Of a DNA stretch of 29,609 bases, positions 1 to 25,739 are shown piece after piece (within the stretch, counting starts at the first letter, position 1; each line of letters opens with the position of its first letter). A program made the position numbers and the translations under genes. The notes under the pieces are model-generated. The model saw nothing but the letters and a program-made list of their open reading frames with translations, made no database searches and was not told the origin of the DNA. The stretch comes from Macrostomum lignano (taxonomy: Eukaryota). The DNA lies in NCBI GenBank assembly GCA_002269645.1, contig NIVC01003440.1, positions 1-29,609 on the forward strand, in the 5' to 3' direction.

Positions 1-815
1 ATGTGTTATGACAGTGTGCTCTTTGCTTAGTTGCTGCACCGGGCCAGTGGGCCGTCTCTCCCCCTCCCCCCCTCCTTAGATATTTTCTGACTCACTCACC
101 TGCACTTCTGCGCGTGCGTACCCTCCCCTCCCTGCCTAGACCTTTTCTGTTGAGTCAACCCCCCATGCTCTGCGTGCGACCCCCCCCTGTGCGACCCCCC
201 CATTATTTTGTTAGCTTTGCTGCCCCGCCCCTGTTTGTGATTGGCTGCCAGTCCAGTCTGCCGTGCTGCGCCCCGGCGATTGGCTGGTACAGCTCATGCG
301 TTGCCTTGGCTGATGTCTAAGCCCCCTTTTCTGCCTTTATCCCGCGCCTCGCCCCACCCCAGTTTGCTGCCTATTTATTCGGCCCCCTTGAGACCCCATT
401 CTCGTCGTCTTCGTGGCTCCTCGGCGATTGTGCCAGCGTTGGTTGCTGAATTGCTATTCCTCGCAGAATTGCTAGACAAATATATAAGTAAAGAATATCG
501 AGATCACCACTGCTCTGACGGCGCTGTTTCTTGTACGACTGAAATCGCGGCTGGTAAGCCTTCCAATTTGTACGTCATTTGGGTCTGCATCTGTACTAGG
601 CACCTTAGAGGGATTAAGTGCGTCGTACGCCGGTCCCACCCCAAGCAGCTCTGCGTCGTACGCGAGTCTGTAGGCTGTCGTGCGTCGTACGCTCGAGCAG
701 CCTAGTCCCGACGGACACCGCGTCGTACGCGTGTCAGTGGAGGACCGCAGCCAGGGTCAGTACACGAACCGGGGTCTGGGAAAGGGGCACGAAAGGACCG
801 AGCCCCATCATCACA
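1..815 (+). repeat. 5' LTR (truncated at left by window)
   Basis: Window position 1 aligns with 7621. Ends in TCATCACA (808-815), a 7/8 inverted match to the LTR start TGTCATGA seen at 7613. Differs from the 3' LTR mainly by homopolymer indels plus a few substitutions (e.g. G488/A8111, T527/G8150, T569/C8192). Confidence 0.96.
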
Positions 816-818
816 AAT

Positions 819-836
819 TGGCATCCTTGGTGGGAC
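819..836 (+). promoter_or_regulatory. Primer-binding site TGGCATCCTTGGTGGGAC
   Basis: Starts with TGG 3 nt after the LTR end. Its reverse complement GUCCCACCAAGGAUG-CCA has the shape of a tRNA 3' end (T-stem half, acceptor half, G discriminator, CCA). The cognate tRNA is uncertain; it resembles Arg(UCU)/Asn-type ends from memory. Confidence 0.8.
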
Positions 837-923
837 CCTGCGCTGTGGAAGACTAAGCAAGGAAGAAAGCTCGAGGCGCGGAATATTGTGAGAAATTAAG
901 GTTAGAAACTGTGACGCCGTGGT

Positions 924-1975
924 ATGGATGCTGGAGGTGCTGCTGGAGGTGCTGCTGGAGGTGCGGCTGGGGGTGCGGCTGGAGGTGCTGCTGGAGGTGC
1001 TGCTGGAGCCTTTGGTGTTAATGATCTGGTCGCCGCCTTGACTGCCCAGATTCAGCAGAACATGCAGCAAGCGGGTGCCTCAGGATTCAGAGGCCGGTGA
1101 AGTATGCTCCAGGAATGAATTTCGTGAAGTGGTTGAGGCTCTTCGTAGCTTATTGCGATGCCATGCAGATTCCGATGCAGAATCGGCGCGCTCAGTTGCT
1201 CAGCAATCTAGACTTCAGCACATTCCAAGTTGTCGACAACATGAACCTTGGACGACTTGCAGTTCGAAGAATTTACCCAGGCCTTGAGGGATAGGTTCAC
1301 TATGCACCGTACCGTCGTCGACTACCGCACAGAACTGAGCAATAGAGAGCAGAGCGAGAAGGAGTCGGTAGAAGATTTCTCTGAAGCTGTGATTGAGTTG
1401 GTCGCAAACGCCTTTCCTGATGCGCCTGCCGATGTGCGCGATGATCTTGCGAAAGAGCGATTTATGCGAGGCGTCCGTGCGGGGGTGGCTGTGCGGGAGC
1501 GATTGTACATGAGCCAGCCGGAGACCTTAGCAGACGCGATGCGTCTAGTGCATCAGCTGGAAGCGGCGGTTAGGGCAAGTCACGGTCCACAGGTCAGGGA
1601 TCAAAAAGAGCTACCGTCTGTGCTGTCACAGCTGAGACTAGAAATGAGGCTTCCGAAAGCAGTGAGGTCGAGATGCTTCGAAAACAGCTTGCGGCCATGG
1701 AGATGCGAATGAAAGAGATGGAGGAGCGGAGGTCTGGAGAAGCGGAAGAGCCGACCCCGGCGAGTCGGAAGGCTGTGCAGTGTTTTTCGTGTCGAGAGTG
1801 GGGCCATATCTCATCAAAGTGTCCCAAGAAAACCAGCCAGACAAGTGGAAACGGGAAATCGCCAGTACGATGTCACAAGTGCAACGGTGAAGGCCACCTA
1901 TCCTTCAAGTGTCCGAAGTCGGGAAACGGGCCGAGGGGACCGACCGGGGAGAGTCGGGACCCTGCCAGGAAGTGA
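924..1975 (+). CDS. gag: Gag (frameshifted at ~1090, ~1247, ~1598)
   Basis: ATG 924 opens MDAGGAAGG...; continues through track ORFs 1097-1294 and 1248-1712 (capsid-like 'YRTELSNREQSEKESVEDF...ERFMRG') and 1673-1975, which has two CX2CX4HX4C knuckles (CFSCREWGHISSKC, CHKCNGEGHLSFKC). Confidence 0.9.
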
Positions 1976-4900
1976 AGTCTCCCAGGGCGAGGAACCGGTG
2001 TTGCTCACTAACTCTGTAAATAAATCCAAGTGCGTCTCTGGTGATGGGAATTCAAAGAGCAACCTGGTTCATGAGGCGTGTTCGTCGGTATCAACGGAGC
2101 CTCTGACAGTTTTTATTTCCGGTGCGGTTTCCGGCAAGCCAGTGGCTCTGCTGTTAGACAGTGGTGCGAGTGTGTCAGTGCTGAGCTGTGATGTTTTCCT
2201 GAGGCTGCCGCAAGAGGTGAGGGAGAGACTGACTGCAATGGACGGTTCCCTTTCAACGGCCAATGGAGGTGCGATGAGGATGAGAGGCTGCATTGTGCTG
2301 GACGTGGAGATTGGCGGCGAGCGGTGGTCAGCGAATTTCTTCGTAGTGGACGGATTGCGTTATGATGTCATTCTCGGGTCCGAATTTTTCAAACAGCATC
2401 GTTGCGTCATCAACTATTCGGAGTTTGTCTTTCGAGTGGGCGATGTTAGAGTTCCGATACGGCAGAAAGGCGAGCTGCCCGTGGTGTGTCGAATCAAAGC
2501 CGAGACAACGGTATTTCTGGAACCGGCGCAAGAAGTGGTCATGCCAGCCAGGGTAGAGAAAAAGGGCGCAAGAAACTGCGGATCGGTCGGCATAACGGAA
2601 GAAAAGCCGGTGAAGGCCGCTGAGAAGGATTTGGCGATGGCTCGAGCTCTGGTAGCGCCCGGTGTGGATGGACGGCTGCCGATGAGATTGCTGAATACGT
2701 CCAGTTGTAGGAAGAGGGTCAAGAAAGGAGAGACGATTGGCTGGTTTATTCCTTTGGAACCGAACGGAGGTATCAACGTGGTGCGCTTGGACGACGACGT
2801 AGAGGCCAAGAATGAAGCGGAGGCATGGGACCCGATCGAAGAATTCCGCGAGTGGGGTTCATGTGGCCTGTCGGAGGAGGAGGAAGCCGACTTCAGGGAG
2901 CTGATTTCCCAACATCGGGCTGTCTTTGCTAAGGACTCCAAGGATCTCGGCTGTACGACGGTGATGAAGCACGAGATCGACACTGGAGATGCCAGGCCTG
3001 TGAAAGAAGCGGCGAGGCGGATTCCCCGTACCTGCGGCAGGAAGTGGACAAGGAGTTGGATGACTTGCTGGAAGCTGGGAGAATCAGCGAGGTTCAGTCC
3101 CCATGGTGCTCTCCGGTGGTGTGCGTGAAAAAGAAGGACGGTTCCCTGAGGTTCTGTTGTGACTACCGGAAACTGAATGAAGTGACCAAGAAGGATGCAG
3201 TGCCGTTGCCCAGGACAGATGACCTGTTGGAGAGCCTAGGCGGTGCCAAGATTTTTTCGACCATGGACATGCAGTCGGGATACTGGCAGATGGCGGTGGA
3301 ACCCAGCGACAGACTGAAGACGGCCTTTGGCGTTTCACACCGGGTACAGCAGTACGCCTGGAACGTTATGCCATTTGGATTGACAAATGCACCGGCTTCA
3401 TTCAGCCGGCTAATGAATGTGGTGTTGGGGAAGTTGTGCTGGAAGACGTGTTTGGTGTATCTGGACGACCTGCTAGTGTGGTCACGAACGGTAGAAGAGC
3501 ACCTGGAACGGTTGCAAACGGTTTTTCGACGGTTGCGAGCAGCGAACATCAAACTGAAGCCGAAGAAGTGCGCATTCCTGCTGAAGTCAGTGACCTTCCT
3601 GGGACACGTAGTGTCAGCTGATGGGATCGCCACGAGTCCAGAAAAGATTGCCGAAATTCGTGACTGGCCAACTCCGAGAATGTGAAGGAAGTAAGGTCAT
3701 TCCTGGGACTGTGCGGGTATTACCGGCAATTCATCGCAGATTTTTCCCGCATTGCTGAGCCGATGCTGCGACGGACCCGACATGATTGCCCGTGGAGCTG
3801 GGATGAGGAGTGTCAAGCCGCATTCGAGGCCCTGAAGGAAAGGTTGCAGGGATCTGAGGTCATGGCGTTTCCAAACTTTGCGGAGGACGCTGGAGAATTC
3901 GTTTTAGACACAGACGGTAGCACAAAAGAAGAATTGGCGCTGTGCTTTCGCAGGTGCAGAAAGATGGGAGTGAGAAGGTAATAGCTTACGGAAGCAGGAC
4001 GTTGTCGCGAGAAGAACGGAATTACTGCACGACACGAGTCGAGTTGCTGGCCGTGGTGTTTTTCGTACAGAAGTTTCGTTATTACCTGATGGGGCGAGAG
4101 TTTCTAGTGCGCACCGATCACAGCAGCTTGAAGTGGCTGCATTCGCTGCGGGACGTAGAAGGACAACTGGCCAGATGGCTGGAACTCTTGGCTCCGTACA
4201 GGTATCGCATCGAACATCGTCCGGGAGTGAAACATCAACACGCGGACGCTCTCTCCAGGAAGCCACGTCGGCGCCATCAAGGAAGCGAGAGTTGTCCTGG
4301 ATGTGCACAAGAGCAGATCGGCGTGAACGCGTTGGGATTGCAGAAGTGGACCTCGGAGGAGATCAGAGAGAGCCAGAAGATGGACAGCGACATTCGTCAG
4401 GCGATGGAGCTGCTGGCTCACAGCGACGGAGAGATAACCGAAGAGCATTTGCGGCGCATATCACCGACGGCAAGGAGGATTATCGAAAGACGTCGTGACC
4501 TTGAGGTGTCGGACAGTGAGGTGTTGCTGTGTCATACGGCCAGTAGACGTCAGCCGCAAGTGGTGTTGCCACGGAATATGCTGAGAGCAGTGCTGGAAGA
4601 AGCTCATGGTGGACGGAGTGGAGGGCACGTTGGGATTTTCAAGACCAAGGAGAAGGTGCGGCAATCGTTTTGGTGGCCGGGACTTGGCCGCGAGGTCGAA
4701 GAGCACGTAAAAGCCTGTTTGGACTGCACCAAGGCCAAAGCTGGCAAGAAACCAATTGCACCGATGGAGCCGATTCCGAGTTCAAGCCCATTCGATATCG
4801 TGATGACGGACGTCATCGGGCCGCTGCCACGGAGCAAGAAAGGAAACTTCTACATCCTCACGGTGCAAGATGCGTTCTCAAAGTGGCCTGACGCTTATGC

Positions 4901-6111
4901 CATCCGGAACCAGAAGTCGGCAACGATCGCAAGGGTGCTATTCGAACGCTGGATTGCCAATCACGGGTGCCCCCGGGTACTTCACTCAGACCAAGGAAGG
5001 AACTTTGAGTCGGGGATCGTCAGGAAGCTGTGCGAGCTGTTGGGTGTGAAGAAGACCAGGACGAGCGCCTACCACCCGAGTGGCAACGGACAGGCGGAAC
5101 GATTTAACGGGTTCCTGAAGAACAGTTTGCGCACGTATCTGGTACAGAAGGGTCAGAACGCCTGGGAGGAGTACCTGCCAAGTGCCTTGATGGCTTATCG
5201 ATCGACGGTCCAGGCGTCCACCGGTTACACGCCCTACTACATGCTGCATGGTCAGGAGATGCCGCTGGGATTCGAACCAGAGGACCTTAGGCGAAAGACG
5301 GACAGCTATCCCTTGTTTGTGCAAGAGATCAGCAGAACCTGCTTCATGCCCATGAACGCATTCGAGAAGGACGCGAGACGGTTCAGCGACGGCAGAAAAT
5401 GAATTACGATCGGAAAGTAAAGGGCAAAGCGATTCAGAAGGGCGACTCTGTCTTGCTGTACTATCCGTGCTTGAAGATGGGAGAGAAAAGCAAGTTCCAT
5501 ATCAACTGGCGCGGCCCAGTGAAGGTCCTGGAGAAGCTGTCAGATGCGTTGTACGAGTGCAGGATCCGACACAGCCGCAGAAGACCAAGGTGGTGCACTT
5601 CAACAATCTCCGGCCGGTTCAGGGCCAGACGGAGGCGGCAGACGGTCAAGAGACTAGAGAGGAAATTGGGAGGGCCAGTTCGGGAAAAACCAGGCCGCGA
5701 CGTGATAATTCCACTGCTGGACGAAGCCGAAGGCAGAGAGTGCAACGGGGCGAGACCCAGAGGTGGACCGCAGCGCGAGGGCCGCAGGACCAGGAATCCG
5801 AGCAGGAAGATGAAGAGTTTGAAGATCTTCAGCTGCGGTTTCAAGATCCAAGAGATCACGCTCCACCGGACACCCGAAATCTGGCCGAAGACTGTGAGCC
5901 CGGACCTGAGCGTCGAGAAGCAGACGATGACGAAGAAGAGCACGACGATGAGTCGCGGTACGACGAGGAGCAGGACGAAGAGGATGAGGCAGAGCCGAAC
6001 GACGCCAACGTACCCGAGCAGGAAGTGAGGACGGCACAGGAGGAAGCAGGGCGACCAAGACGTCTGCGGCGACCGCCAGATCGGTTTGGGGTCCCGGTGT
6101 ACTACTACTGA
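1921..6111 (+). CDS. pol: Pol polyprotein PR-RT-RH-IN (frameshifted at ~3030, ~3680, ~3935, ~5340, ~5550)
   Basis: Protease LLDSGAS (Asp codon 2157); RT WCSPVVCVKKKDGSLRFCCDYRKLN and YLDD (3458-3469); RNase H FVLDTDGS/ELLAV/TDHSSL; integrase H-H-C-C (EAH..GHVG..CLDC), D(MTDVIG)-D(SDQG)-E(AERFN), GPY/F-like module (NWRGPVKV...KVVHFNNLRP); acidic tail ending RRPPDRFGVPVYYY*. The start is set at the putative slippery site. Confidence 0.95.
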
Positions 6112-6210
6112 AGAAGGGTCCGGTGTACGGCGCTTGGATAGCCAAAGGGGAAGGGAGGTACATGTCGTGCGTGTCTCATTGCTCATCGGAGTTAGGCCGG
6201 ACTGTTACAG

Positions 6211-7197
6211 ATGGCGGACCTCTACGAGTGTCTTGGAGTGCAGCTGTGGGCGTCTGCGGCACAGATTCGGAAAGCGTTCTACGGTCGAGCACGCGAACTG
6301 CACCCTGACAAGAGCGCAACAGAGGAGACGCGAAAGAGATTCCAGGAGTGCGAAGAGGCGTACCGAATACTGTCGTGTCCGTTCCTTAGAAAGCTGTACG
6401 ATATCTTTGGAAATGCTGTTCGTGACCGGGATGAGATGCTTCGGCTCGCAGAAGGGATGTTAGAGGATGAAGACATGCCCGACGATCTCCGAGAAGAGAT
6501 AGAAAGACTACAAGAGAGCAACCGATTAGCTGAGGAGGCGTACGAGAGAGAACAGGCGAGGAGGGATGAGGAGCACGTCAAGATGGAGGCAAGTGAGGAG
6601 GCCTCAGACGATGAGCAGGACGAAGAGATGAACGAGGCGAGTGAGACACTGCCGGAGGAGTACGAGGTCGAGAAGGTCTTAGGAGTACGAGTCACGGAGC
6701 GAGGAGCGGAGTATCTGCTGCAGTGGGCCGGTGTAGAGGAGCTTGAGACGTCATGGGAAGCGGAGGAAGATTGTGCCGGATGTAGAAACCTGATTGAAGA
6801 ATATCTGCAGAGAGCGTACCGGCTTCAGACAAGACCGTGCCGACCAGTGACCGTCGCGGAACTGGAGAACGTAGGACCCAGTCGGAAGAAACTGCACCAG
6901 GCAATGCGGAAGGGCGACCCGTGGGGCATCTTTGAGGTGCTGCTAGCCCTGAAGGGGAAGTGCGCCACTGCCTCGGTGGATTTCAAGGAATTCGGTCCGG
7001 AGTTGATGCTGCAGATCCTGGGCTACTTGGAGCGAGACGGTCGCAAGTATCCGGGGCACGGAGTTCGTCGGTGGAGTCGCCAAGCGTGTCAAGCTGTCTA
7101 CATGTCGGTGATGGTGATGTTCCCGCTGTTTGACCTGCGACGCCAGGGTTTGGTCCTGGGTGCCCTCCGTAGGCTGTGGGATTCGTGCTCTGACTGA
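6211..7197 (+). CDS. Retrotransposon ORF3: J-domain (DnaJ/Hsp40-type) + acidic linker + chromodomain + unknown C-terminal domain, 328 aa
   Basis: aa 2-67 DLYECLGV...IRKAFYGRARELHPDK...FQECEEAYRILS...RKLYD matches the J-domain pattern, with HPD at 6301-6309. EYEVEKVL...EYLLQWAG...TSWEAEEDC...LIEEY (~6658-6810) matches the chromodomain pattern. The frame is uninterrupted and lies between the pol stop and the PPT. Confidence 0.93.
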   Translation: MADLYECLGVQLWASAAQIRKAFYGRARELHPDKSATEETRKRFQECEEAYRILSCPFLRKLYDIFGNAVRDRDEMLRLAEGMLEDEDMPDDLREEIERLQESNRLAEEAYEREQARRDEEHVKMEASEEASDDEQDEEMNEASETLPEEYEVEKVLGVRVTERGAEYLLQWAGVEELETSWEAEEDCAGCRNLIEEYLQRAYRLQTRPCRPVTVAELENVGPSRKKLHQAMRKGDPWGIFEVLLALKGKCATASVDFKEFGPELMLQILGYLERDGRKYPGHGVRRWSRQACQAVYMSVMVMFPLFDLRRQGLVLGALRRLWDSCSD

Positions 7198-7600
7198 GGC
7201 TATGTCTTCCTAGGGACTTTGGGGCTAGGGACTTTGCAGTGCAGACCCAGGGACAGCGGAGCGGAGGTGGACCGGCCTTAACGGGTGCTGACGGAGCGAC
7301 ACGGCTGTGCAGCAACCGCAGGACTCGACGACCAGCGCAGAGCGACCAGAGCAACCGGCGACAGTAGCGACAGGGAGACGAGGCACCAGAGCGACGGCCG
7401 TACTCGGCGGGATGCAGGGAAGCAGTGCTAGTATTACTTGTGAGGGTAAATGTTTGACGGTTTCATTTTTTTGTTTTTTGTTCGAACTAGTTGCCATGCG
7501 AGTCCAAAATATTTTCAAATGCGGTTTGTTCCTCTGTTCAATTTTTTTGTTATAGTAGCATCATTTCAATATTCGACTTTTCGAACTCGAACTTTTGTCT

Positions 7601-7612
7601 AGGGGGAGGGAG
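7601..7612 (+). promoter_or_regulatory. Polypurine tract AGGGGGAGGGAG
   Basis: Purine-only 12-mer immediately 5' of the TGT start of the 3' LTR. Confidence 0.9.
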
Positions 7613-8438
7613 TGTCATGAATGTGTTATGACAGTGTGCTCTTTGCTTAGTTGCTGCACCGGGCCAGTGGGCCGTCCTCTCCCCCTCCCCCCTCCTTAGA
7701 TATTTTCTGACTCACTCACCTGCACTTCTGCGCGTGCGTACCCCTCCCCTCCCTGCCTAGACCTTTTCTGTTGAGTCAACCCCCCCATGCTCTGCGTGCG
7801 ACCCCCCCCCTGTGCGACCCCGCCCCATTATTTTGTTAGCTTTGCTGCCCCGCCCCTGTTTGTGATTGGCTGCCAGTCCCAGTCTGCCGTGCTGCGCCCC
7901 GGCGATTGGCTGGTACAGCTCATGCGTTGCCTTGGCTGATGTCTAAGCCCCCTTTTCTGCCTTTATCCCGCGCCCTCAACCCCCAGTTTGCTGCCTATTT
8001 ATTCGGCCCCTTGAGACCCCATTCTCGTCGTCTTCGTGGCTCCTCGGCGATTGTGCCAGCGTTGGTTGCTGAATTGCTATTCCTCGCAGAATTGCTAGAC
8101 AAATATATAAATAAAGAATATCGAGATCACCACTGCTCTGACGGCGCTGGTTCTTGTACGACTGAAATCGCGGCTGGTAAGCCTTCCAATTCGTACGTCA
8201 TTTGGGTCTGCATCTGTACTAGGCACCTTAGAGGGATTAAGTGCGTCGTACGCCGGTCCCACCCCAAGCAGCTCTGCGTCGTACGCGAGTCTGTAGGCTG
8301 TCGTGCGTCGTACGCTCGAGCAGCCTAGTCCCGACGGACACCGCGTCGTACGCGTGTCAGTGGAGGACCGCAGCCAGGGTCAGTACACGAACCCGGGTCT
8401 GGGAAAGGGGCACGAAAGGACCGAGCCCCATCATCACA
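7613..8438 (+). repeat. 3' LTR, 826 bp
   Basis: TGTCATGA...TCATCACA termini; near-identical to 1-815; contains TATATAA and an overlapping AATAAA (8110-8115). Confidence 0.97.
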
Positions 8439-8460
8439 ACTTTTTTATTCAGCTGTACAG

Positions 8461-8759
8461 TAAAGCGGGTCGTAGCCGAGTGGTTAGAGCGTCGGAGTCA
8501 CGACTTGAAGGTCGAGGGTTCGATTCCCGATTCCATTGGAACAATTTGTGTCTTTGAGTAAGACGCTAAATTCTGCATTGTCAGTTCCCCCAGCTGTAAA
8601 ATGGGTGCCAGCATTAGCTGGGGTAATTGAGGGTGTGTAGCGACCCCTCAGTCCATGGACTGAACAGCCGTACTCAGCTTTCAGATGCGCCGCGCGGCTG
8701 AGCTGTCGGTTGCGCATCTGGTCCCATTGGGGCAGGTGAAATCAATTATTATTATTATA
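8461..8759 (+). mobile_element. tRNA-derived SINE with Nin/Deu-like central domain and (ATT)n tail
   Basis: A box TAGCCGAGTGG 8473-8483; B box GGTTCGATTCC 8517-8527; central GTCTTTGAGTAAGACGCT...CCCAGCTGTAAAATGGGTGCC; ATT tail; 12-bp flanking direct repeat TCAGCTGTACAG (8449-8460, 8760-8771). A second diverged copy lies at ~15321-15566. The Nin/Deu assignment is from recalled similarity only. Confidence 0.8.
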
Positions 8760-11487: not shown

Positions 11488-12283
11488 ATGCTCAATGGCC
11501 ACTCTTCCAGACAGCCGGGCAACGATTATTTTCACGGCGACTCGGCCGTCAGCGAGTTCTCGCTGCACTTGGACTCAACTGAGCCGGCAGCCGCTGCCGC
11601 AGCTGTACTCGTCTTCCGGCCCGGCCAGCAGCTCACCGGCCGAGTCCGCCTGCGGCTGCTGCGTCCGCTGAAGGTGCGCAATCTCGACCTGGTGGTGCGC
11701 GGCTGCGGCCATGTCGGCTGGGGCCTCGGCGGCGGCCATTTCGTTCAAGACGATGAGGTGTACATCAACGACATAGCCGAGCTGGTGGCCACGGGGCCTG
11801 GCGAGGTCGTGACGCTGCAGGCCGGAGAGCACGAGTTCCCCTTCTCCAGCCGCCTGCCGCACCACCTGCCATCGACTTTCACCGGCAGCTGCGGCAGCGT
11901 GGCCTACTCAGCCAAGGCCGTCATGCAGGCCGATGGCGACACAGACGGTCCTTGGAGCGCCGTTGAGGCGTTCAGCGTCGAGAGCCTTCTGGAGCTAGAA
12001 GATCACTCCGAGTTGATGCAGCCCTGTATTGTTGACGCCCGAATGGCGGTTGGCGGCAGCAGGTGCGTGAAGGCCTCCCTGTCGCTGCCGCGGCGGGTGT
12101 ACGCTCCAAGCGAGTACATCAAGATTGACGCCACCGTGAACAACCGGTCGCGGAAGGCCATCAGCCGGCTGTGCGTCGGGCTGATGATGGAGTGTCTGTA
12201 CCAAGCTGGGGGGCAGCAGCAGCACCGGGAGACCCTGCTGGTCACCGACAGGACCGACGAATACCGCATCGGCCACTTGGAGG
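11488..12283 (+). CDS. Arrestin domain-containing protein (alpha-arrestin-like), exon 1
   Basis: Arrestin-N motifs 'VFRPGQQLTGRV', 'LQAGEHEFPFSSRLPHHLPSTFTGSCGSVAYSAKA' and arrestin-C start 'SLSLPRRVYAPSEYIKIDATVNNRS'. Donor G|GTAAT at 12284, phase 1. The ATG at 11488 is plausible, but an upstream exon cannot be excluded. Confidence 0.9.
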
Positions 12284-12289
12284 GTAATC

Positions 12290-12676
12290 GAGTGACTGGA
12301 TGAGCTGGTAGGGGAGTGACTGGTTGAGCTGGTAGGGGAGTGACTGGCTGAGCTGGTAGGGGAGTGACTGGCTGAGCTGGTAGGGGAGTGACTGGCTGAG
12401 CTGGTAGGGGAGTGACTGGCTGAGCTGGTAGGGGAGTGACTGGCTGAGCTGGTAGGGGAGTGATTGGCTGAGCTGGTAGGGGAGTGATTGGCTGAGCTGG
12501 TAGGGGAGTGACTGGCTGAGCTGGTAGGGGAGTGACTGGCTGAGGGCTGAGCTGGTAGGGGAGTGACTGGCTGAGCTGGTAGGGGAGTGACTGGCTGAGC
12601 TGGTAGGGGAGTGACTGGCTGAGCTGGTAGGGGAGTGACTGGCTGAGCTGGTAGGGGAGTGACTGGCAGAGCTGGT
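12290..12676. repeat. 24-bp minisatellite (GAGTGACTGGCTGAGCTGGTAGGG), copy 1
   Basis: Tandem period 24; starts a few nt after the arrestin donor. Confidence 0.95.
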
Positions 12677-22879: not shown

Positions 22880-23782
22880 TTCTGCCTGCAGTCTGCCTTT
22901 CCTACAGTCTGCCTCTGTCTGCAGTCTGCCTCTGTCTGCATTCTGCCTCTGACTGCAGTCTGCCTCTGTCTGCAGTCTGTCTCTGTCTGCAGTCTGCCTC
23001 TGTCTGCAGTCTGCCTCTGTCTGCAGTCTGCCTCTGTCTGCATTCTGCCTCTGTCTGCAGTCTGCCTCTGTCTGCAGTCTGTCTCTGTCTGCAGCCTGCC
23101 TCTGTCTGCAGTCTGCCTCTGTCTGCAGTCTGCCTCTGTCTGCAGTCTGCCTCTGTCTGCAGTCTGCCTCTGTCTGCAGTCTGTCTCTGTCTGCAGCCTG
23201 CCTCTGTCTGCAGTCTGCCTCTGTCTGCAGTCTGCCTCTGTCTGCAGCCTGCCTCTGTCTGCAGTCTGCCTCTGTCTGCAGTCTGCCTCTGTCTGCAGTC
23301 TGCCTCTGTCTGCAGTCTGCCCCTTGGCCGCAGTCTGCCCCTTAGCCGCAGTCTGCCCCTTGGACGCAGTCTGCCCCTTAGCCGCAGTCTGCCTTTTGGC
23401 CGCAGTCTGCCCCCTGGCCGCAGTCTGCCCCTTGGCCGCAGTCTGCCCCTTAGCCGCAGTCTGCCTTTTGGCCGCAGTCTGCCCCTTGGCCGCAGTCTGC
23501 CCCTTGGCCGCAGTCTGCCCCTTGGCCGCAGTCTGCCCCTTGGCCGCAGTCTGCCCCCTGGCCGCAGTCTGCCCCTTGGCCGCAGTCTGCCCCTTAGCCG
23601 CAGTCTGCCTTTTGGCCGCAGTCTGCCCCTTGGCCGCAGTCTGCCCCTTGGCCGCAGTCTGCCCCTTGGCCGCAGTCTGCCCCTTGGCCGCAGTCTGCCC
23701 CTGGCCGCAGTCTGCCCCTTGGCCGCAGTCTGCCCCTTGGCCGCAGTCTGCCCCTTGGCCGAAGTCTGCCCCTTGGCCGCAG
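22880..23782. repeat. Bipartite 17-bp / 18-bp minisatellite
   Basis: ~22880-23315 unit GTCTGCCTCTGTCTGCA; ~23316-23782 unit GCAGTCTGCCCCTTGGCC; shared core GCAGTCTGCC. Confidence 0.93.
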
Positions 23783-23801
23783 CCTGGCTGCCCGAACTCA
23801 C

Positions 23802-24036
23802 CCAGAACAGCTTGGCGTAAAATCCAGCAAATTTCTGATGCGTGGCGGCGGCCCGCCGGACCCGCTGCCGCGTCACCTCCATGTTGTCGATGTTGAGGAT
23901 GGCCTCGTCCAGGATACCCATCACCAGCTCGCCGTGCAGCGCCAGCTCGCCGTTCTCGCGAATATTGTCGCTGAGCTCGAGGTGGCTGAACTTCACAAAC
24001 ATTGTCGCCTGCAGGTCTTTGTTTGTGCGGAATAAG
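23802..24036 (-). CDS. Globin exon 2 (B12 to G6)
   Basis: Acceptor ...GATTTCAG| at 24037; donor |GTGAGT at 23801; 235 nt, phase 2 to 0. LFRTNKDLQATMFVKF (CD1 Phe), LALHGELVMGIL (E7 His), AAATHQKF (F8 His). Confidence 0.92.
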
Positions 24037-25739
24037 CTGAAATCGGGGAGGGTGGGGCTTCTTAGAAATCTTCGATTGAACAAAGGATTTCGTCTGTCTG
24101 ACGGACCGCGCATTTCCTCCGCAGTGGGAAAGTTGCTTAGATGCGACAGGCAGCCCCCCCCCCCCCCAAGAGCCGCAAGTCAGAGTGGCAAAGGAAGTCG
24201 AATCCGCCGCCCCCGGAGAAACAGGAATTCGAAATTCGTACTTTTCCGGTCCATTTCTCCACTTTGGTTGCGCCTCGCACCCGCTACACTGGCTGGTGCT
24301 GCCGCATACGGGGCGGAGGTCATGGGACCCCCTTCCCCCGGTGCAGCTGGCATTCAACCTCCCCCCTCCAGTCTCCAGCGCCAGTCCTGCCACACAGCCT
24401 GCACGGCAGCTAATTTGCAGGGAATTTCGTCCTTCGCTGGCGGCTGGAAGGCCGGAGCTGACTGATAAGCGGCTGTCAACGGAATTCCATTAATATTTCA
24501 CAATTGTTGCCAGCGCGTGAGCAGCATGCAGAGTTCACAGGGACAGGTGAAGGCCAAGCATCTTCACCTACGCGACACTGCTGAGAACCTCTCGCTGAAG
24601 TCACAACTTTTTTCTGCAAAACATTTTTTCTGTTCTGATTACTTCAGAGGCCCAATTACGCGAATTTTATTTGTGCCTTCTGAGCTGCGCCGTCGGTGAG
24701 TTGAAATTGCAGAAATGAGGGAAAATCCTGAGCGAACCCGGCCTGACTCAGGGCAGCTCGACAGGCACTCAGACTCGGGCCCCGCCGAAACTAATGAGTC
24801 ACGCCTGACCGAGCTGACTGAGCTGCCTCTCTGACTGCCGAGACTCCCCTAGGAGATTTTCAGAACCTGCTTGAGAAGTTTTGCTCCATCTGAGTTCGGC
24901 AGGCAGGCACCAAGATGGCCAAGAGTGCAGAGCATGGCGTCAACTCCTTGCCAGCTCATTAATTATTAATGCGGTACTCAAAGTGATGCTTTTATAATGA
25001 TGAGGCTTACACTATGCAGTAGAACTCTATCATTGTCGCCAAAAAATTGACGCTGTGTGCACCTGCAAGACATCAGTGGGGCAGCAATTTGGCCTGCAGG
25101 CGGGCGGGCGGGCAGCGAGGGAAGAGCAGGGAGCCAGGGAGAAGGAGGCTGCAGTCGCAGTGCATGCAGGCCCTCCCGCAACGCGTTTTATTGCACCCTG
25201 CAGCCTGCCTGAGCTGCAGCCGCCCTGTGGGAGCAGCCATCCAGCTTGAGTAGTCAGTAGAGTGGGAAGTTTGCTGTAGAAACAAGCGGCTTGCCTGACT
25301 CCCCTAGGAATGCAACTGATATTGACATTCGGGATGTAGAAAAGGGGGGAAAAGCCCCCTTGCTTGGCGCAGCAGTCTCTAAGGAGCGGATACTCTTCAC
25401 TTCTCTTCTCTATCCGTCGCTTAGCCATTGCGGCTGCATGGTAATTCCAAAGCTCGGCTATGCTGTGCTCAGCCGCGAGTCAGATCCCAGATGCCTGCTG
25501 ACACCGGCATAGCCAGACAGGATTTATAATGGATTAAAATCTACGAATGGGACTCAAGAGGTGCTTTGCCGTTCTTGTCAGTTGGAGCACATTTTGCTAT
25601 GACAGGCCAAATGGTTTTTTGAGGGAGAGGAGCCGCTTATCGATCTGCGACAGCGAAAATCTTCAAGTTGGAACTGAAAAATCTGAAACAGCTGAGCTGT
25701 GAGTTCCTGAAATAACTGGGACCATGAAACTATGAGCGA

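Follow-up and report, generated by a model that had tools for sequence, protein, structure and literature searches.

The third open reading frame (ORF3) of a Ty3/Gypsy LTR retrotransposon, which occupies positions 1–8438 of the window (the whole stretch of 29,609 nucleotides analysed here), is a real, selected and apparently undescribed accessory J-protein of a clade of flatworm Gypsy elements. In the best of several readings, the protein would be a nuclear Hsp70 adaptor aimed at silencing complexes marked by SUMO or H3K9 methylation and would counter the silencing of its own element, a reading to which we give a probability of about 40%.

The retrotransposon in the window

The element is about 8.4 kb long and contains two LTRs, a primer-binding site (PBS), a polypurine tract (PPT), gag, a pol with protease, reverse transcriptase, RNase H and integrase, and then ORF3, all on the plus strand; the TG...CA LTRs with PBS, PPT and target-site duplication (TSD), as well as the order of gag and PR-RT-RH-IN, are those of Ty3/Gypsy. 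The host is Macrostomum lignano, according to the label of the 99% identical protein P0002. The 5′ LTR (1–815), whose first bases are missing at the contig start, ends in CA and aligns with the 3′ LTR (7613–8438, 826 bp, TG...CA) with few substitutions. The latter is preceded by the PPT (7601–7612) and followed by a 4-bp TSD (8439–8442), the 5′ copy of which is visible in L024, apparently the same locus in a second assembly. Both gag (924–1975), with two CCHC knuckles (zf-CCHC), and pol (1976–6111), which ends in an acidic tail and has no chromodomain, have their frames broken in this copy, pol at several places, and ORF3 is open. The PBS (819–836) is unlike those of families B/C and D described below (L029, L030, L031), which suggests that the use of the primer tRNA changed within the clade; that of families B and C resembles a tRNA-Lys PBS, a lead only for the Gmr1/Osvaldo cluster.

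The initial annotation had placed a separate ORF of 328 aa inside the LTRs behind pol, and its coordinates (6211–7197) were confirmed together with the three in-frame stops that separate its ATG from the pol tail (6109–6111, 6139–6141 and 6193–6195). Since these stops precede ORF3 and a Chromo match is absent from all four pol tails examined, the element is not a chromovirus with an integrase-fused chromodomain. ORF3 has no membrane segment (top 19-residue hydropathy 1.23) and matches no env family in Pfam, and therefore it is not an env of the errantivirus-like kind. A heat-shock link through an HSE in the LTR was considered and rejected, as the regular expression for the canonical HSE in the accessible text of PMC12801592 had no match in window 1–8500, nor in L030 or L031, and one match in L029, which lies within pol. 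The heat-induced Mlig-id38, with an LTR of 337 bp and a length of about 6.4 kb, is by eye unlike the element in the window. Downstream of the element, minisatellites cover 36% of positions 8440–29609, with host exons among them; one exon encodes an arrestin-domain protein (11488–12303, plus strand, E 5e-19) and another a globin fragment (22902–24113, minus strand, E 1e-5).

Domain architecture of ORF3

The J-domain (aa 3–64, 6217–6402) reported in the initial annotation matches Pfam DnaJ PF00226 with an E-value of 4.4e-16 and 59.2 bits (cut-off 27.8), and its HPD (6301–6309) is intact, which makes ORF3 a class C J-domain protein by sequence; a DnaJ match above the cut-off with HPD was also obtained in all seven J-bearing relatives scanned. 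It is followed by a clade-specific J extension (aa 65–95, 6403–6495) with a conserved Pro motif at its end, and by an acidic linker (aa 96–150, 6496–6660), in which 23 D/E stand against 6 K/R and which, unlike those of most relatives, has no SIM-like motif. Next come a chromodomain (aa 151–201, 6661–6813; Pfam Chromo PF00385, E 1.4e-12, 47.7 bits, cut-off 25.1) and the C-terminal domain (CTD, aa 206–328, 6826–7194). The architecture first described stands. Its ‘further domain’ is the CTD, and it is this domain and not the chromodomain that forms the conserved partner of the J-domain in the clade. It is known that HPD J-domains stimulate Hsp70 and deliver clients selected by their other domains, and we infer that ORF3 is a modular Hsp70 adaptor. 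In NCBI and UniRef the protein is named hypothetical or ‘J domain-containing’, the names being shown without element context. A J-domain tree (83 rows, 72 columns) was poorly resolved, had 3 changes and is compatible with one origin; a donor was not found in it.

The CTD is a new folded domain to be characterised. The single-sequence fold of ORF3 was unusable (pLDDT 46.4), and from a 15-row alignment the CTD is predicted with confidence to consist of five helices and a loop rich in Arg (pLDDT 84.2, pTM 0.78). Each of the 11 full-length rows in the A3 alignment has a basic CTD (20 K/R versus 12 D/E in the window member), and the basic G-R-R-W loop is conserved. Pfam gave no family for the window member and no family in more than 2 of the 15 members, and a CTD profile search returned three proteins, all of the ORF3 family. 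Its sequence matches in the PDB were designed helical proteins, and Foldseek with the CTD model against PDB and BFVD gave no match at E ≤ 0.001. The best VIA-align score was Z 7.8 (rmsd 3.5, 103 aligned), inside the range common for helical bundles. In addition, several four-helix bundles of the B12-binding cap aligned at Z 6.5–7.6 (rmsd 2.1–3.1, about 80 aligned), a likeness that was set aside as a common helical arrangement.

The chromodomain of family A, to which the window element belongs, has Swi6, CBX1 and CBX5 as its best solved matches (E 2e-10 to 4e-9), and with its Chromo match and this likeness it is of the HP1/Swi6 type; the other chromodomains of the M. lignano genome are 33–38% identical to it. 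No Pfam match to Chromo_shadow was found in ORF3, which is thus not an HP1 protein. At the positions of the aromatic cage, which are those of CBX1 and were placed via the chromodomain alignment, family A has Y151, W172 and V175, that is, two of three aromatics, P0003 has Y/W/L and the sister family A′ has F/W/F. Because the third cage residue is Val, methyl-lysine binding by the family A chromodomain is doubtful, and the full cage is found in A′ only, whose four examined copies are all broken.

A clade of eleven families with a common core

Homologous ORF3s were found in 11 families of the M. lignano genome (A, A′, B, H, C, C′, D, D′, G, I and J), ten of which were reached via weaker genomic matches. 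ORF3 lies directly behind the pol tail in all eight families with upstream DNA read (A, A′, B, C, C′, D, G and J), a count that covers 8 of the 11 since the upstream DNA of H, D′ and I is outside the fetched stretch. The full-length ORF3s of the other families are 25–32% identical to that of family A, and the integrases 55–61%. Common to all are the J-domain, the extension and the CTD, and HPD is present in 10 of the 11 families. As read from the alignments, the shared core of the clade is this J-domain with extension and basic five-helix CTD, not a J-domain with a chromodomain. The chromodomain, which is confined to families A and A′ plus P0003, is best regarded as a lineage-specific addition, and because of this distribution methyl-lysine reading cannot be the ancestral job of the protein.

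Family J (L049:170–1846, plus strand; L050 = G000:C254:568450–571800), with 16 places at 38–39%, has an ORF3 of 558 aa directly behind the integrase. Its J-domain is degenerate, with HPD lost and a DnaJ E-value of 0.0025, below the cut-off. It has no acidic linker and keeps the extension and the CTD, the latter with a weak match (hhalign prob 22, E 0.001, 103 columns). Moreover, it carries a TatD-like domain (Pfam E 4.9e-5, below the cut-off), and a description of a TatD-like ORF3 was not found in the paper search. Family A′ (L034:2170–2538, L035) is about 52% identical to family A in the chromodomain and N-terminal CTD and 95% in residues 273–328, which marks it, by its sequence pattern, as a recombinant with family A. 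All four examined copies of A′ are internally deleted or interrupted, and some of those examined in D′, C′, H and I are also broken.

A word-index protein search returned only P0002 and P0003, the closer of the further members (75% identical), and a whole-library phmmer search added P0026, P0033, P0007 and P0097 among the best 150 of 13,638 matches, P0026 and P0033 being public members of the clade; the search with a full-length ORF3 profile was swamped by ordinary DnaJ. The ESM Atlas had no usable match for ORF3 or a CTD, and a metagenome scan with P0033 gave 146 pattern matches, of which none was confirmed. L032, a control match, is a host DNAJB-like gene and not an element, and P0014, P0017, P0019 and P0023 are multi-chromodomain proteins without DnaJ. 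An unrelated ENA protein of 263 aa (P0104) also combines a DnaJ match (E 1.3e-23) with a Chromo match (E 7e-17) but lacks the CTD; it is a single member and may be a chimeric gene model. Some further features were seen around the families. At the gag-pol junction, family B (L029:1430–2190) has a 30-nt tandem repeat with a His/Gln/Pro/Ser repeat in the pol frame, and a Ser/Pro repeat occupies the corresponding position in family D. Beside the A′ fragment in L033 there are two AT-rich ORFs (3669–5147 and 5975–6604, plus strand), which look by eye like Polinton-type capsid genes, and the minus strand carries a second, different integrase.

Recent activity and purifying selection

The family A chromodomain was found at 28 places at ≥97% among 39 matches in the assembly, which is redundant, so that this figure does not give the number of copies. 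Of the other places, the 20 with the highest ORF3 scores were fetched. Each of them is preceded by pol sequence and followed by an LTR, and 17 have both LTRs within 9.9 kb; the ORF is thus multi-copy and element-borne wherever its context was checked. ORF3 is open in 16 of the 20, a proportion that is no test of maintenance as the copies were picked by ORF3 score. A 4-bp TSD is present in 13 of the 16 copies with both ends parsed, all 13 being different, and the LTR pairs of the parsed copies differ by 0–4 substitutions; therefore family A has been recently active. The public gene model P0155 fuses a family A copy with a conserved, MutS/MSH6-like host gene, which suggests an insertion in or beside that gene.

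Pairwise Nei-Gojobori counts were made for 13 segments in the family pairs A/A′, B/H, C/C′ and D/D′. The dN/dS ratio is 0.10–0.27 in 12 of them, with 0.27 in the chromodomain segment, and the remaining one is saturated (pN/pS 0.29); these values are to be read with synonymous sites near saturation, local alignments and broken partner copies. The bootstrap upper 95% bound of pN/pS is ≤0.71 in all 13 segments. J-domain, chromodomain and CTD are thus under purifying selection. The initial annotation had named missing domain matches, a single copy, neutral evolution (dN/dS about 1), a match to a known host gene or an earlier description as counter-evidence, and none of these applies; both domains were matched, the ORF is multi-copy and selected, and no description of it came up in our searches.

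Expression of ORF3

A putative splice acceptor (6197–6210, ..TTACAG) lies immediately 5′ of the ORF3 ATG. An AG ending 0–1 nt before the ATG occurs in seven of the nine families with an ATG (A, A′, B, H, D, D′ and G) against a background of 32/250, and does not occur in families C and J. This acceptor points to a spliced ORF3 mRNA, the junction itself being a predicted one. GTAAGC donors are present in the LTR regions of families A, B, C and D. For the donor of family A (CTG/GTAAGC, 550–561, cut at 553/554 within the LTR), a contig of run X1 contains one GT..AG joint (552–648), and contigs of runs X1 and X6, whose RNA kind is a guess, stop at 553; this donor appears to be in use. In three runs that are guessed to be RNA, contigs span the element and ORF3, and a joint to the ORF3 acceptor is not among the joints listed for those contigs, which cannot show absence. 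ORF3 would be made from a spliced subgenomic RNA, either in cis from the LTR donor or by SL trans-splicing. Both routes are possible because ORF3s of LTR retrotransposons are typically expressed from spliced messages, according to the accessible part of PMC5408684, and SL trans-splicing occurs in 30% of M. lignano genes, as stated in the text available from PMC8629364. A contig of run X6 leaves the LTR at the donor (553) and continues for at least 255 letters unlike window 1–7612; it is possibly an LTR-driven chimeric host transcript.

Possible function of ORF3

In the proposed mechanism, ORF3 would be an accessory protein that a clade of Macrostomum Ty3/Gypsy elements has long retained, and its basic CTD would bind DNA or nascent RNA of the element itself, or else a protein partner. 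The linker module, SIM-like in most families and an HP1-type chromodomain in A/A′, would engage SUMOylated or H3K9-methylated silencing complexes, and the HPD J-domain would call nuclear Hsp70, which would pull these complexes apart. Transcription of the element would be eased, and ORF3 would be a counter-silencing factor. The main argument is that, in Drosophila, the silencing of transposons guided by piRNAs passes through SUMO and H3K9me3 as steps that follow one another (10.1101/533091, as far as its accessible text goes), and therefore two different modules point at one pathway.

The SIM-like motif is a hydrophobic strand followed by S/T-D-D-E, which recurs in the acidic linkers and fits the SIM definition given in the available part of PMC12751080, i.e. 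a four-residue hydrophobic core followed by acidic/Ser residues. It is present in the linkers of 9 of 11 relatives (B, H, C, C′, D, D′, I, A′ and P0026; family J was left out of the set) versus 0.35 expected from shuffles, a contrast that overstates the test as the nine matches stem from about five related lineages. It is absent from the linkers of G and P0033 and from the window protein and P0003, and was found in none of five equally acidic pol tails. The broad rule was written after the motif had been seen and after a stricter textbook-style regular expression had matched 2 of 13 linkers. The motif is thus a strong lead, not proof, and its presence in most relatives suggests additional support for a target in chromatin silencing. 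A complex prediction of host SUMO with the SIM-like segment gave 0.32 (mark 0.34; one control 0.28). Acidic C-terminal extensions with SIM-like stretches were seen by eye in families G (L038:265–430 region) and I (L046, downstream of an internal stop), and the host SUMO gene (L048, G000:C1551) is intronless, with 7 places on 4 contigs.

HPD is kept in all families except J despite the low ORF3 identity, which speaks for a counter-silencing role, and modules of a reader with a J-protein act on silenced chromatin in Arabidopsis, where, according to the accessible parts of PMC8616336 and PMC11694752, MBD5/6-SILENZIO silences and SUVH1/3-DNAJ1/2 activates. Against this role, the window family has neither the SIM-like motif nor a full cage, and SILENZIO silences transposons instead of freeing them (PMC8616336). 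Furthermore, Hsp70 recruitment is not indispensable, because family J keeps the CTD and extension and has lost HPD and the acidic linker. Thus, for the Hsp70 adaptor at silenced chromatin suggested initially, both domains and their selection hold and the SIM-like motif adds support, while the loss of HPD in family J and the non-ancestral chromodomain weigh against it. The targeting of methylated chromatin by the chromodomain is doubtful for the window family: the domain is of the HP1/Swi6 type and selected, but its cage has V175 and it is restricted to two families and P0003. We put forward tentatively that the clade encodes an Hsp70 co-chaperone with a J-domain and CTD scaffold and exchangeable SIM, chromodomain and TatD-like modules, which would dismantle SUMO/H3K9me-marked piRNA silencing complexes.

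The Arg-rich loop of the modelled CTD may fit a role in RNA export equally well. ORF3 could then be a Rev/CERV-like handler of RNA, which binds the unspliced genomic RNA through this loop and lets Hsp70 remodel the RNP for export or packaging, the SIM or chromodomain merely placing it at transcription sites. The LTR donor and ORF3 acceptor make the genomic RNA intron-containing, the G-R-R-W loop is conserved, and of all the parts only the CTD persists throughout the families, even in J. CERV of Cer1 in C. elegans, the product of a spliced mRNA, is needed for export of the genomic RNA, as described in the text available from PMC10309623. Nevertheless, a resemblance to CERV or Rev did not turn up in the sequence searches made, and RNA handling alone leaves the gain of a selected HP1-type chromodomain unexplained. 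We consider this explanation a serious alternative, less probable than the counter-silencing role.

In another serious but somewhat less probable alternative, ORF3 would travel in the virus-like particle or pre-integration complex and recruit Hsp70 there to help in assembly or uncoating; in family A it would also direct insertion into heterochromatin, acting in trans where the integrases of chromoviruses act in cis. Viruses are known to employ J-domains, as in the polyomavirus T antigen, the integrase itself lacks a chromodomain, and the TatD-like nuclease domain of family J, below the cut-off, would suit a step with a DNA intermediate. On the other hand, the SIM-like motifs of families without a chromodomain would be unneeded for uncoating, and no insertion-site bias was seen in family A, 3 of 13 TSD-bearing insertions lying in tandem arrays versus 36% tandem-repeat cover in the rest of the window, a poor background that makes the comparison weak. 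Self-restraint, in which ORF3 would bring Hsp70 to the chromatin of the element and reinforce silencing or limit copy number, is improbable: the same parts would serve, as tethered SILENZIO silences (PMC8616336, accessible text), but the recent activity of family A, with its 13 distinct TSDs in 16 copies and nearly identical LTR pairs, speaks against it. A passive and functionless capture of pieces of host genes, which the broken copies of A′, D′, C′, H and I would fit, is very unlikely in spite of the caveats of the counts, since it is largely refuted by the dN/dS of 0.10–0.27, since frame, HPD, CTD and acceptor persist between families whose synonymous sites are nearly saturated, and since no host gene with this CTD is among the protein matches.

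If the counter-silencing reading is true, ORF3 would be a transposon-encoded, chaperone-based suppressor of transcriptional silencing in animals; from plants, element-encoded suppressors of silencing (VANC21) have been described, as have host J-proteins that act at silenced chromatin. ORF3 is kept by selection across 11 families in a model animal tractable for transgenesis, and its natural variants, which gain or lose HPD, the SIM-like motif, the chromodomain and the TatD-like domain, form a comparative series in which the countering of SUMO/H3K9me silencing by a transposon, or RNA handling, can be tested.

Comparison with known systems

Chromoviruses resemble family A in that a Gypsy element carries a chromodomain, whose cage is imperfect in family A; theirs is on the integrase, whereas here it is in a separate ORF and in 2 of 11 families only. 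The polyomavirus T antigen has an N-terminal HPD J-domain that acts in cis with a targeting motif, and it targets Rb-E2F through LxCxE. ORF3 is similar to it in having such a J-domain on a parasite protein, and the difference is that the T antigen comes from a DNA virus. A description of a retrotransposon J-domain protein was not found in the literature search, with most subscription journals and repeat databases outside its reach, and the initial suggestion that the architecture is undescribed in LTR retrotransposons agrees with this. Extra ORFs behind pol are of a known kind, and it is the content of J-domain and CTD that is apparently undescribed. The GDSL and DEDDy ORF3s of the bdelloid Juno/Vesta elements are likewise family-specific extra ORFs between pol and the 3′ LTR with domain swapping; what ORF3 encodes here is a J-domain co-chaperone that bears reader-like modules, and ‘DnaJ’ occurs 0 times in the accessible part of that paper (PMC5408684). 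The heat-induced, HSE-bearing LTR families of M. lignano share with family A the host, the superfamily and a link to the heat-shock system and differ from it in the HSE, and the main text of PMC12801592, as far as available, contains none of the terms DnaJ, J-domain, Hsp40 and chromo. CERV is also a nuclear accessory protein of an animal LTR retrotransposon made from a spliced mRNA; it was compared by description only, and J-domain, SIM and chromodomain are unmentioned in the available text of PMC10309623. VANC21 of VANDAL21 is likewise an element-encoded accessory protein and has the anti-silencing job that is proposed for ORF3, but it belongs to a plant DNA transposon, no J-domain is described for it in the accessible part of PMC8616336, and homology to ORF3 was not seen. 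Finally, MBD5/6-SILENZIO and SUVH1/3-DNAJ1/2, from the parts of the sources available, couple a reader of silent chromatin to an Hsp70-recruiting J-domain at transposon-type chromatin, as would ORF3; these are host complexes of two proteins which read DNA methylation, whereas ORF3 would join the corresponding functions in one element-encoded chain of an animal.
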